IMG/VR virus record: IMGVR_UViG_2627854098_000004
Origin: a virus
Lineage: Duplodnaviria; Heunggongvirae; Uroviricota; Caudoviricetes
Reading direction: 5' to 3' (one strand)
Length of the DNA: 51,192 nucleotides
Below, one piece after another: positions 1 through 46,232 of the stretch (position 1 is its first letter; each line of letters opens with the position of its first letter). The translations under genes and the position numbers were made by a program. The notes beneath the pieces were generated by a model. That model had not been told where the DNA came from. It was given only the letters and a program-made list of their open reading frames with translations, and did no database searches.

Positions 1-219
1 TTATGCAGCGTTCTGGCGTGAGTTTCGAATAGTCGTTTCAATCCATTCATCAATCTCACTTTCCACAAAAGCGACACACCTCGGTCCTATTTTTACCCTG
101 TCTGGAAAGTTTCCTTCCTTAATACGCTCATATAAGGTCGTACGACTGAATCCCACTCGATTTAAAACATCAGGAACGCGGATAAATCGTTTTACGCTGG
201 TTTCACTATTTTTTTTCAT
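1..219 (-). CDS. AlpA-family phage/island transcriptional regulator (DNA-binding excision-type regulator)
   Basis: ORF 1..291 on the - strand; internal ATG at 219-217 preceded by AGAGGA; helix-turn-helix-like segment RFIRVPDVLNRVGFSRTTLYERIKEGNFP typical of the AlpA family; lies outside the prophage boundary. Confidence 0.65.
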   Translation of the reverse strand: MKKNSETSVKRFIRVPDVLNRVGFSRTTLYERIKEGNFPDRVKIGPRCVAFVESEIDEWIETTIRNSRQNAA

Positions 220-435
220 TGTCTGTCCTCTTTTGTTGTACGGAATCTCTATGAGATTTCGTTTTTCTCTATGTTGTTTCGACGAGAACAATGATAGCGA
301 TTTTGCTTATGACAATTTAGGGACGTTCAAAGAAGTTTTTTTTGAAAAATTCGAAGGGGCACGGATGGAAAGATAACGGTTAACACTGGATGCGATCACG
401 TTCGCACGGAGCGAACGTAACCCTTTTTACTTGGC

Positions 436-1272
436 TTATTTTTTCTTATTCCTGTCGTCTTCTACATGCTTTTCAACAGGGGAGTCTTTCAAGTAGTTGT
501 TTTCCATCATGTAATCTTCAAGCGACTTCAGATAGCTCGCATCCGTCAGAAAAGCCATTGCTAACGGGTAATCTGTAGCCTTGAGCATTCCTTCATCACG
601 ATCGTTGTCGCTGTCCTCGTGAAGCAGCGAGGAAATCAGTGAAAGCGGGATTTTAATGCCGTTATCTTCTCCCCAGAAGATCAGGTCCATCATCGGGATA
701 AGACGATATTCAATAATTTTTCTGAACGTGCTTTTGCCAAAACGATACTCTCTTGGAACTGGAGACGTCATCTTAAGCTGCCTCTTCCATTGAGGGATCA
801 ACACTTTCAGATGTTCAATGATCTCTTCGGTTGATGCTTCTTCCAGATGAATATCGGCAGTAATACGTGAAAGATTATTAAGGGATGTCTCTTTCAGATA
901 CTCGGACAGAAATTCAGACTGGCTTAACCCAGAGAGTTCAGGCGTGGCTTCGGTTAATGCCAGCGTTTTCGCATAAAATTGCGCGTGGCTTCGTGTCGTA
1001 GGGTTTACTGCGTAGGTTCTGGCAAGCTCATGTCCAAGGGTCGCGGTATCACCACTGAAAAAGATTTCGCCTCGCAAAATTTTATAGCGGTAGTCATCCA
1101 GCAAAAGTCTGTTCAGGGTCGGTATGGTATTCCGGCTCAACAACATTCTGTAAGCCAAGATGCGCCGCTCAACCTCAACATAAAACTGCTGTAAGGTGAG
1201 TTTCTCTATCGCCTCATAGCGTTCAACATCAAACCATGCTTCCAGTGCTTTCCTGATTTCACTTCTTTTCAT
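436..1272 (-). CDS. hypothetical island-associated protein (279 aa)
   Basis: ORF 436..1329; start ATG at 1272-1270 preceded by GGAGGATGG; no motif I can assign; adjacent to the AlpA-like gene. Confidence 0.5.
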   Translation of the reverse strand: MKRSEIRKALEAWFDVERYEAIEKLTLQQFYVEVERRILAYRMLLSRNTIPTLNRLLLDDYRYKILRGEIFFSGDTATLGHELARTYAVNPTTRSHAQFYAKTLALTEATPELSGLSQSEFLSEYLKETSLNNLSRITADIHLEEASTEEIIEHLKVLIPQWKRQLKMTSPVPREYRFGKSTFRKIIEYRLIPMMDLIFWGEDNGIKIPLSLISSLLHEDSDNDRDEGMLKATDYPLAMAFLTDASYLKSLEDYMMENNYLKDSPVEKHVEDDRNKKK

Positions 1273-1550
1273 CCATCCTCCAACAATCCATTTCCTTTGA
1301 TATATCTTCACAGGATCCGTTTGGAACAATTGAAGTTCAACTGTTTTGTCATCAGAGACGGGGGAATGGCTAAGTTGTTGTTAAGAGTGTGAACTCGAGA
1401 GCATAAAAGTGGATGCCCGACGCGCGGCAAAATGGTAAAAAACAGCATCAGTAGTAAGAAAAATTGAGCGAGAGAAAGGAATTTTAATGCAGGGATTTAT
1501 GCATGACAAAATCAAAAATGCTTTGTAATTGATTGATTTTGTTGAATGAT

Positions 1551-1612
1551 TGGCGGAGAGAGGGGGATTTGAACCCCCGGTAGAGTTGCCCCTACTCCGG
1601 TTTTCGAGACCG
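1551..1612 (-). repeat. 3' 62-nt fragment of tRNA-Ser(CGA) (serU-like); candidate prophage attachment-site core, distal (attR-side) copy
   Basis: Reverse complement reads CGGTCTCGAAAACCGGAGTAGGGGCAACTCTACCGGGGGTTCAAATCCCCCTCTCTCCGCCA: anticodon loop (CGA), long variable arm, T-arm and acceptor/CCA of a class II Ser tRNA; the 5' part of the tRNA is absent (sequence diverges at 1613). Confidence 0.7.
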
Positions 1613-2470
1613 ATGATACAGAGTCGAAAAATCAAAGAGTTAAAAAATTTTCTTGGAATAAATGTCTTAAAATCGTGCACGAAAAATCAATAAATTACAT
1701 AACATTAAAGAAGAATATTCCAAGCCTTCATGAGGTCACCACCTGTTTTCTGGTGTCATTCAGACGTGATTTGCCCCAGATTGGGAAAGCAAGCTTTTTT
1801 TTCTCAGCTTATTCCGTTTTGCCTGTGTGTTGAATAATTCCACTGCAGTTATATAAAATCGGTAACGGCTAGAAATCATTCAATACTCGCACTATCGGAA
1901 GTTCACCAGTCAACCGCGGTACGTTCTTGTATACAAGGTGCCGCGGTTTCCTTAATAATTTTTAGCAGTACTGTGTGAATGATGAGCGCCCTAAATCCAT
2001 GCATGATGCGTAGTGCCTGTTGTGCATCTTTCCGCGTCTCTTTTTACTAGACCAAAACCAATGATGCTTGCAATACCATTCCCGCCAGGCTCACAGAACA
2101 AATATCCCTTATCATCGACGCATAAGCGACACTAATCAGCAAAACCTAGGATGTATTGCTCTTGCCGGCACCTCCGGGAAAAATGTTTACTGCGCAATAA
2201 ATGAAAATAGCTCATCAACGTGCCGAGAATTAGCTATGTCTTGTGAGAAAAGAAACATCAATGATGCGTACAGCCGCACGAATACTTCTTATATTTTACT
2301 GTTAAACCGATACTTTTGTATCCTAACGAATACTTGACAAGATTATCTCCATCTTGGTAGATAAACCTCAGAAGGTTTTTGACAGGTGGATTTCTGTTCA
2401 GAAGGTCAATAAAGCTCTTCTCTATCATTAGTCAAATGTACAACATGGCTGTCTAAATAACGGAGTACTC

Positions 2471-3250
2471 ATGAATTTTACGTTTACTGACTCTGGATAC
2501 ACTGAAACAAATAAAAACAATCCCCCAATCATATTCGTTCATGGATTTTTCATGAATAATGAAATGTTCAAATACCAGTTTGACGAACTAAAAGAAAAAC
2601 ATAGAGTTGTTTGCATTAATGTTCGGGGATTCGATGCTCTCTCCGAAAAAATTGAGCCATTCTCGCTCTATGACATCGTTGATGACATTTTAAACGTCGC
2701 AGACTCACTACAACTGGATAAGTTTATTTTAGGTGGAATGTCGATGGGCGGATATATATCATTACGATTTGCCCTGTCACATTCAGAACGTTTGTCAGGG
2801 CTAATCCTTATGGCAACTCAGGCAGAGCAGGATCCGCCAGAAATCGCGTCCAGTTACATGGAGTTATGTAATGGATGGCAAGACCCAATCATAAAGGAAA
2901 ATATAATCAACTCATTATTACCCGTTTTTTTCGGAAATGATATCTCTGAAGCAGAGACATGGAGACAGGTATGGCTAGGCCATAAACCTGAAAATATCAT
3001 AAAGGCCATGAATGCAATGCTGGAGCGCGACGACATTTCAGAAAGAATCCAGATAATCACAATCCCCACGCTGATTATTCATGGTGCCAACGATATGGGG
3101 ATACCATTAGAGAAAGCAATTCAAATGCACAAAATGATTGCGCATTCTAAGCTTGAAGTCATTCCCGACGCAAATCATGCTCTAAATATCACTCATGCAA
3201 AGGAAGTAAATACAGCGATAAAAAACTGGCTGCAAAACAATCATATATAA
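2471..3250 (+). CDS. alpha/beta-fold hydrolase (moron, att-proximal)
   Basis: 259-aa ORF with RBS GGAG upstream; nucleophile elbow GGMSMGG (G-x-S-x-G) and candidate acid and His residues near the C-terminus; AT-rich compared with the lambda-like genes. Confidence 0.75.
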   Translation: MNFTFTDSGYTETNKNNPPIIFVHGFFMNNEMFKYQFDELKEKHRVVCINVRGFDALSEKIEPFSLYDIVDDILNVADSLQLDKFILGGMSMGGYISLRFALSHSERLSGLILMATQAEQDPPEIASSYMELCNGWQDPIIKENIINSLLPVFFGNDISEAETWRQVWLGHKPENIIKAMNAMLERDDISERIQIITIPTLIIHGANDMGIPLEKAIQMHKMIAHSKLEVIPDANHALNITHAKEVNTAIKNWLQNNHI

Positions 3251-3287
3251 AATTAATTATAACACATATTAATTTCTTAATTATATT

Positions 3288-3313
3288 ACGCCCGTAAAAC
3301 TGTAGCGGGCGTA
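3288..3313. terminator. hairpin between convergent genes (possible bidirectional terminator)
   Basis: 8-bp stem TACGCCCG/CGGGCGTA with a 10-nt loop, in the gap between the hydrolase (+) and the membrane-protein gene (-); flanking runs are A/T-rich but not clean U-tracts. Confidence 0.35.
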
Positions 3314-3451
3314 TGTTGTCACTCTGGTAGTGCCAGCCTCTCAATATCAGGTGCAGTTGATGTATCAACACGGTTCAGCAACACCCGATACTTTTTCCAG
3401 GCTTCCAGCAACGGGGTTTCTTCCTCCGTTGCATATACAGCTCACCTTTTT

Positions 3452-3745
3452 TCACCCACGATTAACCAACAGCCAGACCAGCAGACACGCCACCACCGGC
3501 ACAGCAAAATCCATCAGGCTTGCCACATCCCAAGCACGCGGATCAAAACCGCCCCACCACGGCATATTCATTCGCTTGCCATGCCCGAACATTTCAATCC
3601 AGCGATATTCTGCCTGGGTATGTTCACGCGCAATGAAGAACGTACAACCGGCTATCGCTCCGTAAGCCCAGTTTCCGGTAAAAAGACCAACCAGTATCTG
3701 CGCAGCCACAGCACAAAGTGCATGAAGTAAGGGGCTTATATCCAT
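3452..3745 (-). CDS. small membrane protein (97 aa, two predicted hydrophobic helices)
   Basis: ORF with strong RBS AGGAGG overlapping the stop of the upstream gene; hydrophobic N- and C-terminal segments; function unknown. Confidence 0.55.
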   Translation of the reverse strand: MDISPLLHALCAVAAQILVGLFTGNWAYGAIAGCTFFIAREHTQAEYRWIEMFGHGKRMNMPWWGGFDPRAWDVASLMDFAVPVVACLLVWLLVNRG

Positions 3746-23605: not shown

Positions 23606-25517
23606 TCACTCCTCCGGACAGCTTCGCTGCCAGTTCTTTAAGGGTTGGCCGGGTCGTCTCTTCTTCCCGGGATTTTGCCAGTACAGCCAGATCAAGCTGC
23701 CAGCGTTGCACGGACACACGTAATGCCGCGTAGGCATACACCAGGCAGTCCAGCGCTTCGTTACGCCGCTTTTTGTTATCCCACAGCAGACGCATCTTTC
23801 CTTTTTCCCACTTCTCCACAAGCTCTTCCGCGACCAGTTGCTGCGCCTCTGTCTGCGAAAAAATCTCCGGATCATCAGGAAAACGGATAGCATACGACGT
23901 GGCTTCATCCACAGGCGTGGGATCGGCTTTCATACGGGCATAGAGAATTTCTTTTGCGGTGTCCGTCCCCACTTCACACAGATACACGCCCCGCTGATTG
24001 CGGGTTTTTGGCATGGTGATCACCGGCTTGCCATAGACAGATGCGCCTTTTACCGGCAGCACCCGGAAAACACCGTGTTTTTTTGACCTCTGATAAACGA
24101 TTTCGCCATCGATCCCCCCGATGTCCCAGCAGACACGGGAAATGGTCATTTCGGTTCCGTCTGCATGGCGGTATTTTTTGTTGATCGCCGCATCCACACG
24201 TAACAGCGTCTCTTCCTCATCGGGACGCCCCATAATGATGATTTTATCCACCAGAAAGGCTTCCTCTCCCGGAGCCCATCCCCAGACATACATCTCAAAA
24301 CGGTTTCGCTGCGAGTCAATGCCCGCCGTCAGATAAACCACCCGGGCAGGCACCGCCGCCGTGTAACGCACAACCTTATCCATCAGCACCTGGTGATCGA
24401 GTTTTTCGCCCACAGCCTCTTCCCAGGTCTCGCCCAGCGTGGTGTTCACAAAGGTTTTCAGGCCGTTGGGATCTTTCAGTGCATCCAGCCAGTCATAGAC
24501 AATCTGTACCCAGGTGGTGAACGGACTGTACGCCGTCCAGATATGGAAAGTGATGGAGCGCGGCGGCGGAATTTCATCACCCCGGGCGCTGAAAAACATC
24601 AGGCCGTCACGGGTCCACATGCCCGTGTTTTCACAGATCCACCGCCCGTTACTCTGGTCAAGCTCAGACTGATGGATCACACAGCCATGATGCTCACAAA
24701 GGTAGAAAACACTTTCTGGCTTATTCTTCTCCCACTTAAGACCGAAAGGCGAGGCATCATCGCCAAATTTCAGATACTGCTCCTCCCCACAGTGCGGACA
24801 GGGCACATAAAAACGCATGAAGTGTGCCGACTCGTTAGCGGCTTTTTCGATCTGGCAGGAGCCTTTGATTTTAGGCGTCGAGCCGCGAATGGATTTTGGC
24901 CATACAGAGCCCTCAATACGTTTATCCCCCAGCAGGGTTGGCGAACCCTCTTTTTCAACATCCGGTTCGAACGAGGAAAGCTCGTCATAACAGACCACAT
25001 CCACGGATTTTTCACGGTAGTTTTTTGCTGCCGCACCACCCAGACACCAGAACCCCACACCGGAGGAAAAACGCTTCAGGGTGAGCGTATTATCGCGGTG
25101 TTTTCTTCCGAACCATGGAGCCAGCTCCAGCAATGCAGGAACATCCCTTATCGTTGGCTCAACATGAGATTTCATAAAATCTTCAGCAGCTGAGTCCGTG
25201 GGCTGAAAAAGAAGGCTGTTGCGTGATTTATGCTCAATAAAATAAGCCTCCACTCCCAGCAACATCTTTGTATAACCAACACGGGCAGATTTAATCAGGT
25301 TAACCGTGCGAATCAGATCGTTGCCCATACAGTTCATGATGCCAACCTGAAACGGCAGTGTTTCCCATCGCCCCGGGGTATAAGACGACTCTTTAGGAAG
25401 GTAATAATGTTTATTGGCCCACTGAACTGTCGTCAGTGGAACAGGAATAATGAGAGATAAAAGCCCTGTAGCTATCGCACCGGCTGCATTAGCTGCCTTC
25501 TGCGCGTCTGAAATCAT
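23589..25517 (-). CDS. A: terminase large subunit A
   Basis: ORF 23589..25559; likely start ATG 25517 overlapping the end of Nu1 as in lambda; lambda gpA-like throughout. Confidence 0.9.
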
Positions 25518-45995: not shown

Positions 45996-46067
45996 GCGCG
46001 GCGTTACCGCATACCAATTACGCTTCACTCGAGGCGTTTTTCGTTATGTATAAATAAGGAGCACACC

Positions 46068-46232
46068 ATGCAATATGCCATTGCAGGGTGGCCTGTTGCT
46101 GGCTGCCCTTCCGAATCTTTACTTGAACGAATCACCCGTAAATTACGTGACGGATGGAAACGCCTTATCGACATACTTAATCAGCCAGGAGTCCCAAAAA
46201 ATGGATCAAACAATTATGGCTATCCAGACTAA
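46068..46232 (+). CDS. cIII: CIII (FtsH inhibitor, 54 aa)
   Basis: ATG 46068 with [64 protein letters not shown]; below the ORF-track cutoff. Confidence 0.85.
   Translation: MQYAIAGWPVAGCPSESLLERITRKLRDGWKRLIDILNQPGVPKNGSNNYGYPD

Follow-up and report, generated by a model that had tools for sequence, protein, structure and literature searches.

Organisation of the locus

The window analysed here is the whole stretch of 51,192 nucleotides in the IMG/VR virus record IMGVR_UViG_2627854098_000004 (Caudoviricetes), and the locus under study, positions 1613 to 3313, carries a gene for an alpha/beta-hydrolase preceded by a long A/T-rich stretch that contains a nested palindrome. The window is a lambdoid prophage of the type found in avian-pathogenic Escherichia coli (APEC) and ST95 strains, integrated at serU and drawn "backwards"; positions 1400-3500 are 100% identical to E. 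coli APEC IMT5155 and nearly identical to APEC O1 and other ST95-type strains. An earlier reading of the letters alone (the original prediction) had described the hydrolase as lysogenic cargo close to the phage attachment (att) site, with a non-coding stretch of 860 bp before it and the palindrome as a possible binding site for a regulator. That description of the upstream DNA holds in so far as no intact gene is present. It fails in that the "860 bp" are four separate things, namely an att arm, a block of ~96 bp, a ykgJ-like pseudogene and the upstream region of the hydrolase gene itself. The features of the locus are as follows:

1613-1809, no strand assigned: phage-side att arm, A/T-rich (34% GC), 93-96% identical to the free phages ev099, mEp332 and PhiR70_1
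1853-1948, plus strand: discrete lambdoid block of ~96 bp ending in a hairpin, delimited by BLAST edges and by comparison with lambda, HK106, mEp460 and K-12
1912-1948, plus strand: nested palindrome forming a stem-loop, followed by UUUCCUUAAUAAUUUUU; from folding, covariation and RNAalifold
1982-2298, plus strand: ykgJ-like pseudogene, from nucleotide identity to K-12 and split tblastn frames
2258-2470, plus strand: hydrolase-specific upstream region, conserved with the gene in 11 of 11 copies
2471-3250, plus strand: alpha/beta-hydrolase of the serine esterase/lactonase type, 259 aa; an uninterrupted open reading frame supported by Pfam, AlphaFold2 and Foldseek
3287-3313, plus strand: G+C-rich 9-bp hairpin past the hydrolase stop codon, conserved only in the closer copies of the cassette

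The explanation that we consider probable as a whole is that this is a cargo slot at the end of a prophage, holding a stack of relics, a hydrolase unit and an orphan terminator hairpin. On the plus strand the order would be the att arm, the orphaned block, the dead ykgJ-like gene and the hydrolase unit, followed by a remnant of a tail-fibre-assembly gene on the opposite strand. The hydrolase unit would comprise about 210 bp of conserved upstream DNA, a ribosome-binding site, the coding sequence for 259 residues and a hairpin. The palindrome does not regulate the hydrolase but is an unrelated boundary element. Everything at the locus falls within known kinds of system.

The hydrolase and its predicted structure

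The open reading frame at 2471-3250 contains the sequence GGMSMGG, as had been noted originally, with the nucleophile elbow GMSMG carrying Ser91. The product matches Pfam PF00561 (Abhydrolase_1; E=1e-27, 97.8 bits against a cutoff of 25.8) and PF12697 (Abhydrolase_6; 64.6 bits against a cutoff of 26.3), and its PHROGs label is only "esterase/lipase". The two best NCBIfam models both scored far below their equivalog cutoffs, at 103.7 against 255.85 for PcaD (TIGR02427) and 87.5 against 206.95 for BioH (TIGR01738), and the protein was accordingly filed neither as the 3-oxoadipate enol-lactonase PcaD nor as BioH.

Amongst 38 homologues, with identities down to 25%, the invariant residues are His24, Gly53, Gly89, Ser91, Gly93, Gly94, Arg186, Pro199, Leu201, Gly205, Asp208 and His236. 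Among them are the catalytic acid and histidine, the nucleophile elbow and the oxyanion HG motif (His24-Gly25, invariant or nearly so). The AlphaFold2 model computed from the alignment of these homologues, with a predicted local distance difference test score (pLDDT) of 94 and a predicted template modelling score (pTM) of 0.92, gives an alpha/beta-hydrolase fold with an eight-stranded core and a helical cap, the latter formed by four helices at 123-184. The catalytic residues are located just past the strands formed by residues 85-90, 200-205 and 226-231, in agreement with the canonical placement after beta5, beta7 and beta8. Both the alignment and the model therefore predict a triad that looks catalytically competent. 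The original prediction had called for comparison with esterase structures and had named a misplaced triad as the result that would speak against it; as far as a model allows this to be tested, the placement is canonical.

The closest match by both sequence and fold is TtEst from Thermogutta terrifontis (PDB 4UHC-4UHH), with a phmmer E-value of 1.6e-32 at 31% identity and, in Foldseek, a template modelling (TM) score of 0.89, E=5e-24 and a probability of 1.00. This carboxylesterase is described as cytoplasmic and as having a cap domain (PMC4655241). Ser91, Asp208 and His236 align with Ser101, Asp222 and His250 of TtEst, as counted on the printed alignment, and both proteins have a helical cap and lack a signal peptide. 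On the other hand, TtEst comes from a thermophilic planctomycete and shares only 31% identity with the hydrolase, and the scores of enol-lactonases and aryl esterases are close behind, the next Foldseek matches being an enol-lactonase, a gut feruloyl esterase and a Pseudomonas aryl esterase with TM scores of 0.84-0.88, the enol-lactonase and the esterases likewise at a probability of 1.00.

Comparison of seven copies of the cassette gives 47, 33 and 96 variable sites at codon positions 1, 2 and 3, respectively, and this crowding at the third position shows that the hydrolase is under purifying selection. The protein would most likely be found in soluble form in the cytoplasm and act on small esters as a serine esterase or lactonase. 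It represents an uncharacterised, rare but well-folded esterase or lactonase subfamily that is essentially limited to E. coli prophages.

Components of the upstream stretch

The three phages whose att arms resemble that of the window, ev099, mEp332 and PhiR70_1, integrate at serU. Within the arm a motif of ~23 nt is repeated directly at 1625-1647 and 1680-1702, and these repeats are possible arm sites for the integrase. The small open reading frames between 1613 and 2470 (40, 89, 56, 36 and 33 aa) were rejected as genes, having no match in Pfam, NCBIfam or PHROGs.

Over 415 nt the window is 81.2% identical to K-12 ykgJ together with part of the spacer upstream of it. In tblastn, residues 1-42 and 43-106 of YkgJ fall in two different frames with internal stops. 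A -1 frameshift and a TAA are common to all seven cassette copies that carry the relic, and a change of TGG to TAG at 2048-2050 is specific to the window. Across codon positions the substitutions are spread without periodicity (16/12/12 and 7/10/9), and the CxxCxxCC motif of the YkgJ family has degraded to CMMRSACC. Given the frameshift, the stops, the decayed motif and the aperiodic substitutions, this homologue is a pseudogene, and it would be a dead former cargo gene of the slot. One further annotated feature overlies it:

2013-2135, plus strand: 40-aa open reading frame annotated in RefSeq as "ferredoxin" (WP_071779325.1), in the third frame of the ykgJ relic

This "ferredoxin", named by NCBI only, has no cysteine and no family match in NCBIfam or PHROGs and lies in the wrong frame of the relic, and for these reasons the peptide is an artefact. 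RefSeq also has tiny open reading frames over the block and the ykgJ relic at other loci (L002:4989-5069, L004:3986-4126 and L006:3989-4105, where L numbers designate the loci compared), with names such as "capsid protein" and "nucleocapsid protein". The names "capsid", "nucleocapsid" and "ferredoxin" all look like propagated mis-annotations. For annotation, then, the "non-coding" stretch should be read as a ykgJ pseudogene together with phage boundary elements, and the "ferredoxin" peptide as an artefact.

The region from 2258 to 2470 belongs with the hydrolase gene. It is ~88-97% identical across all 11 cassette copies, including those without the block and without most of the ykgJ relic, and in E. 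coli it is found only next to the hydrolase gene. It contains invariant TTGACA hexamers at 2335-2340 and 2379-2384, the sequence TGGTAGATA at 2356-2364, which could act as an extended -10 element, and a GGAG ribosome-binding site at 2462-2465. In the lysogen the hydrolase would probably be expressed from a putative promoter of its own in this region. Past the stop codon, the hairpin at 3287-3313 is a probable terminator between the hydrolase gene and the convergent remnant of the tail-fibre-assembly gene.

Two other readings of the region were dropped. It is not an ultra-conserved, riboswitch-like leader, given that 31 of 133 sites vary in 2338-2470 among the seven relic-bearing copies, a rate similar to that of the coding sequence; nor is the direct repeat TCAGAAGGT (at 2367 and 2397) a site for a regulator, the second copy not being conserved in other cassettes. 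No LexA box of the form CTGT-N8-ACAG was seen by eye in 1960-1990 or in 2390-2410.

The palindrome is a hairpin with conserved pairing

A nested palindrome is located exactly at 1912-1948, as predicted. Its outer arms, AACCGCGGTAC and GTGCCGCGGTT, form 10 Watson-Crick pairs out of 11 with one G.U pair on the plus strand, and enclose the perfect inner palindrome CTTGTATACAAG. An 81-nt RNA containing it folds with an energy of -23.4 kcal/mol (z = -3.3), which none of 200 shuffled sequences equalled. When the 858-bp stretch was shuffled 300 times, however, 25 of the shuffled versions had a hairpin of equal quality, and 24 hairpins of this kind occur in the window, so that the palindrome by itself is only weakly beyond chance. 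That it is real follows instead from its conservation and covariation at other loci.

These loci were found with a 16-nt pattern taken from the 5' part of the block, for which reason conservation of that part in the set is partly forced by the search, and 56 distinct versions were aligned. In the 13-pair helix 91.5% of cells are paired, as against 27-51% when the partner column is slid, and 8 of the 13 pairs have changed on both sides. The number of compensatory cells is 32, compared with 11 +/- 3 in shuffled alignments, and none of 500 shuffles reached 32. At one pair, for example, C-G has become U-A in 11 sequences and at the next A-U has become G-C in 8, and RNAalifold independently recovers the core of the helix. 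What is conserved is thus the base pairing and not the sequence: the perfect inner 12-bp palindrome of the window is not conserved in L002, K-12 or lambda. In the L006 copy of the cassette the 3' half of the hairpin has been deleted.

The pairing is also biased towards RNA. On the plus strand there are 51 G.U pairs against 26 A.C pairs, and a T-rich tail follows most copies of the hairpin, several of these being textbook examples, including TTTTTCTTTT and GCGGTTTTTCTTTT. Together the G.U excess and the T-tracts point to a role at the RNA level. The best reading of the hairpin is as an intrinsic terminator, as indicated by a conserved G+C-rich stem-loop with the folding energy and the eight compensated pairs given above and, in many relatives, by a U-tract following a dinI-like gene upstream. 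In most phages the hairpin would end a leftward transcript from the dinI-like gene or the int side, facing the convergent tail operon. The window copy of the hairpin is an orphan, with no dinI-like gene before it and the att arm adjoining the block; here it would be a relic or an insulator that at most stops transcription arriving from the att side.

The original proposal, that the palindrome binds a regulator, would make it an operator for a dimeric protein controlling the downstream gene, whether ykgJ-like or hydrolase. The symmetry of the window copy, a perfect 12-bp palindrome nested within an 11-bp outer one, would suit such a protein, and a promoter-like match (TATACA-18-AATAAT, 1930-1959) overlaps it. 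In K-12 the hairpin is ~32 bp from the ykgJ ATG, and with so little space any ykgJ promoter there must overlap it. Promoter-like sites nevertheless occur only at the level of chance (6 found, 6.8 expected), and the compensatory and G.U changes maintain pairing while the inner palindrome is lost elsewhere. Between the element and the hydrolase ATG are 520 bp that include a dead gene, the element lies within a block that is present in ~190 phage records with unrelated genes downstream (at least nine unrelated cargo genes, or none), and the hydrolase unit occurs without it. Conserved pairing, the independence of the block and the existence of hydrolase units without it argue for a hairpin, acting as a terminator, a recombination core or both, and against a hydrolase operator, which we regard as very improbable.

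A second alternative is that the block encodes a small RNA of ~85-95 nt, either derived from the 3' untranslated region of a dinI-like gene or standing alone, with the 5' part as seed and the palindrome as a terminator and Hfq module. It would account for a conserved, unpaired stretch of ~60 nt, the covarying hairpin and the U-rich tail; the block also opens with a conserved TAAAAT that in the window lies 18 bp after TTGAAT. There is a precedent in DinR, a small RNA from the dinI 3' untranslated region of Klebsiella, although this is described as Klebsiella-specific and is unrelated in sequence (PMC10907235). Neighbouring relics in K-12 are transcribed as the small RNAs EcsR2 and IS009. No -35 element is conserved across the loci, however, the conservation of the 5' part is in some measure a product of the search pattern, and no Rfam family was found on the plus strand even at E<=5. 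On balance such an RNA seems unlikely. The homology search for small RNAs that had been suggested for the upstream region returned no Rfam family at the gathering threshold, and a search by E-value gave only sub-threshold CssrB, IS009 and tRNA-like noise.

A number of observations weigh against the cargo-slot explanation with its terminators and promoter. In the window no gene lies upstream of the hairpin and the U-tract after it, UUUCCUUAAU, is interrupted, such that the hairpin may do nothing here, and it was not called by the consensus terminator scan. The hairpin at 3287-3313 was likewise missed by the terminator scan and has no clean U-tract. The TTGACA hexamers lack a canonical -10 element, and the consensus promoter scan called no promoter in 2258-2470. 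Symmetric covariation could also arise from co-evolving half-sites for a recombinase. Lastly, CssrB (RF02799), a small RNA of Shigella, gives a weak match at 1915-1984 on the minus strand (21.2 bits against a gathering score of 76) in which only the 3'-terminal hairpin of the family aligns; this uses the same palindrome on the opposite strand and hints at bidirectional use. In 15 related loci CssrB was not found at threshold.

A discrete block shared among lambdoid phages

The hairpin forms the end of a block that occurs well beyond this prophage. BLAST searches of 50,697 phage records matched 188, of which 40 were sampled, and among the matches listed most start at window position 1854 and many stop at 1946-1949. 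Phage lambda carries the block and hairpin at 24169-24259 (L142:2501-2591), between ea31 and ea47 in the b region; in HK106 the block lies between attP and tfa, and in K-12 it is in the spacer between ecpE and ykgJ. It directly follows a dinI-like gene in mEp460 and in Stx phages, the Stx2a phage EH2201 among them. The same is true of 24 of 58 distinct prophage loci, in which an intact gene for an 82-aa DinI-like protein ends ~60 nt upstream of the hairpin. Conversely, the hydrolase unit lacks the block in L005, L134, L138 and L140. Homology between loci ends immediately after the hairpin, and the cargo beyond differs from locus to locus; the best reading is that the block marks the boundary of a hypervariable cargo slot.

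The copy in the lambda ea31-ea47 spacer is 83.5% identical to that of the window, hairpin included, and is oriented in the same way relative to the tail genes. It lies between two leftward genes of the b region, however, and not beside att, and carries no functional annotation in the record.

An element of this size has been reported before. According to Nakamura et al. (2021; PMC8112680), a 96-bp sequence termed "attB-in-PP_2" is found at the ends of effector loci in lambdoid prophages, is 81-84% identical to the ykgJ/ecpE spacer with homologous flanks of 184 bp and 29 bp, and serves as an integration site for other lambda-like phages. The block in the window is similarly ~96 bp long, is ~81% identical to the spacer and lies at the cargo end of a prophage. 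The K-12 spacer of 312 bp has a dinI remnant on the ecpE side and then the block of ~96 bp followed by ~30 bp to ykgJ, which makes it likely that the two are the same. The block is probably attB-in-PP_2, with the palindrome as its 3' end, a correspondence drawn from lengths and block edges. The effector loci of that study also lie between tail-fibre genes and the prophage end, as in the window. They differ in that they carry type III effectors, whereas the cargo of the window is a hydrolase of metabolic type and no phage is integrated in its block.

Integrases often target the stem-loops of terminators or tRNAs. It is possible, although we hold it only tentatively, that the block is primarily a target for site-specific recombination with the inverted repeat as its core, the window copy being an unoccupied docking site, a role compatible with termination. 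Both the 96-bp att site of PMC8112680 and the block (~96 bp, 81%) match the ykgJ/ecpE spacer. The sharp edges of the block are common to unrelated contexts (lambda ea31/ea47, the att arm, dinI), as exchange at an att site would produce, and cargo varies immediately 3' of it. Set against this, the mapping of attB-in-PP_2 to 1853-1948 comes from lengths and edges, at no locus examined was there an integrase or a second copy of the block flanking an inserted phage, and the G.U bias and T-tracts speak for a role in RNA. No nested prophage between two copies of the block was present among the contigs examined. The two readings would be reconciled, and the sharp, shared edges explained, if the stem-loop of a terminator had come to serve as a recombination core as well. 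The window palindrome may also be a secondary attachment site for other phages.

One class of cargo (L024, L032, L045, L054 and L096) has the sequence GGGTTTCGAGACCGA right after the hairpin. The serU att core of the window has a similar sequence, GGTTTTCGAGACCGA, at its anticodon-loop end; the likeness is either due to chance or left over from a recombination event that joined the block with an att site in tRNA-Ser.

Comparison with K-12 shows the same skeleton in a chromosomal setting. The ecpE-ykgJ-yagU segment (L010:1171-2054) contains a 3' remnant of a dinI-like gene, the block with its hairpin, an intact ykgJ, a canonical terminator and a stretch derived from tfa. The window differs in having no dinI remnant, a dead ykgJ and, as an addition, the hydrolase unit that K-12 lacks. 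The tfa-derived stretch of K-12, in the yagU-ykgJ spacer next to ykgJ, is the Rfam family IS009 at 202 bits, and the small RNA EcsR2 has been mapped to the same spacer (PMC4350180). K-12 ykgJ itself encodes 109 aa of unknown function (PMC8743551). This order of elements suggests that ykgJ is a fossil, once cargo at a prophage end that has since decayed, and the annotation of the ecpE-ykgJ-yagU segment would be corrected in that sense. This is the opposite direction of origin to that proposed in PMC8112680. Full-length IS009 was also seen at two prophage loci (L027 and L030).

A more sweeping version would have the block as a universal lambdoid module that is at once a structured RNA (a terminator, or a small RNA of the 3' untranslated region type) and the attB-in-PP_2 recombination hotspot that drives exchange of cargo, with K-12 ykgJ and IS009/EcsR2 as domesticated leftovers. 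We consider this rather unlikely in that form. Independently of it, what the comparison adds is a cargo slot bounded by a sharp 96-bp block with a covarying hairpin, common from lambda to Stx phages, and should the block be both terminator and docking site this would help to account for the shuffling of genes for effectors, defence and metabolism from one lambdoid prophage to another.

The hydrolase as prophage cargo

The cargo-slot explanation is supported by the composition and distribution of the hydrolase gene. Its coding sequence has a GC content of 38.7%, compared with 56.2% for the structural genes (5-25 kb) and 50.5% for the whole window, and it is convergent with the tail operon, on the plus strand as against the minus strand of the tail-fibre, Lom and J genes from 3452 onwards. 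The A/T-richness and the opposite strand had both been read correctly from the sequence. The gene occurs in 30 of 5,426 complete E. coli genomes, always on the chromosome and always in this prophage slot, and nine of the copies in these 30 genomes, from avian or ST95 strains, are identical. The exact protein is present on 371 contigs, under generic names only. Prophages of at least five contexts (serU, icd, prfC, dusA and ompW) carry the gene in this slot, directly past their tail-fibre or tail-fibre-assembly genes.

Free phages show the slot without this cargo. Phage ev099 has the same att arm, between the int side and tfa, and the same tfa, with ~660 bp between them and no hydrolase, and in HK106 attP, the 96-bp block and tfa follow each other with no cargo. 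The hydrolase is thus an extra gene of deviant GC content between flanks that follow each other almost directly in ev099 and HK106. Phage morons are extra transcription units between conserved genes of lambdoid phages, and the gene of the window is likewise A/T-rich, lies between conserved flanks opposite to the late operon and is flanked by hairpins. Morons have their own promoter and terminator, whereas those of the window gene are both putative, and the slot is littered with relics of earlier cargo. Calling the hydrolase a moron in the classical sense, that is, accessory cargo of the prophage, is sound and confirms the original view of it; it is ordinary cargo and no new kind of system.

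Outside phages, relatives at 44-52% identity are found in metabolic or plasmid contexts, next to a binding protein and an aldehyde dehydrogenase or to a type III polyketide synthase. A search of species-representative genomes, with sensitivity for close relatives, did not find the family and gave only an unrelated match in Bacteroidota. In a fold search of BFVD there was no close viral relative, only distant hydrolases of giant viruses. Searches of the literature gave nothing specific on the hydrolase of the APEC O1 serU prophage, on CssrB, or on exchangeable effector loci together with tail fibres.

In other prophages (L017-L125) the genes directly 3' of the hairpin encode EcoRII, GmrSD, a GIY-YIG nuclease, DUF4145, a MASE4-GGDEF cyclase, an acyltransferase (Acyl_transf_3), NleG, an omptin, NleC or ykgJ, or there is nothing before tfa. 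Two open reading frames of the slot (438 aa and 259 aa) have no Pfam match.

That EcoRII, GmrSD, NleG and NleC occupy the slot elsewhere raises the question of whether the hydrolase is itself a dedicated anti-phage defence or an effector-like virulence factor, and the concentration of the identical allele in avian-pathogenic and ST95 strains would fit. The protein, however, has no signal peptide, secretion signal or partner gene; PADLOC found no defence family for it or its neighbours; and its matches in Pfam, NCBIfam and PHROGs are to hydrolase families only, with no type III effector family and nothing beyond "esterase/lipase". The metabolic and plasmid contexts of its relatives and the lack of a close phage relative in BFVD point the same way, and we regard a dedicated role of this kind as quite unlikely. 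As accessory cargo of the prophage, the hydrolase is of interest for an identical allele fixed in the avian-pathogenic/ST95 lineage, a modest gain with a possible role in fitness or virulence.

The prophage end and the neighbouring island

Two features flank the locus:

1550-1612, minus strand: 3' fragment of tRNA-Ser(CGA) (serU), spanning anticodon loop to CCA end, read from the sequence and annotated in a homologue
3319-3454, minus strand: remnant of the tail-fibre-assembly gene, a RefSeq pseudogene, forming the right-hand flank of the cargo slot

In phage SerU-LTIIb a tRNA-Ser is annotated on the stretch homologous to window 1550-1612. ARAGORN found no complete tRNA in the window, where the fragment is present as a single copy. 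It is the att core between this prophage and a neighbouring island, and because it divides the two, the hydrolase locus is correctly described as att-proximal. The lambda-like early region is confirmed by a full-length match to the cIII thermoregulator (Rfam Lambda_thermo) at 46055-46113 on the plus strand with 88.5 bits. RefSeq marks the tail-tip gene J (window ~6828 onwards; L001:9429-10101) as frameshifted, and for this reason the prophage may be defective. Within the tail-fibre-assembly remnant, IS009 (RF02111) matches 3356-3454 on the minus strand with 68.6 bits, below its gathering score of 117.

To the left of the serU fragment (window 1-1549; L001:1-3873) are AlpA, a DUF6387 protein and two hypothetical proteins, and further left in the genome record a SMODS nucleotidyltransferase adjoins a SLATT-domain protein, a candidate nucleotide-signalling defence pair. 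The AlpA, DUF6387, SMODS and SLATT genes belong to a second island in tandem at serU. A 24-nt A/T-rich motif is inverted across the tRNA-Ser fragment with 88% complementarity (1517-1540 and 1683-1706, also 1513-1540 and 1628-1655). The inverted and direct A/T-rich motifs around the fragment are possibly arm-type sites for an integrase, or sites for integration host factor, common to the island and the phage.

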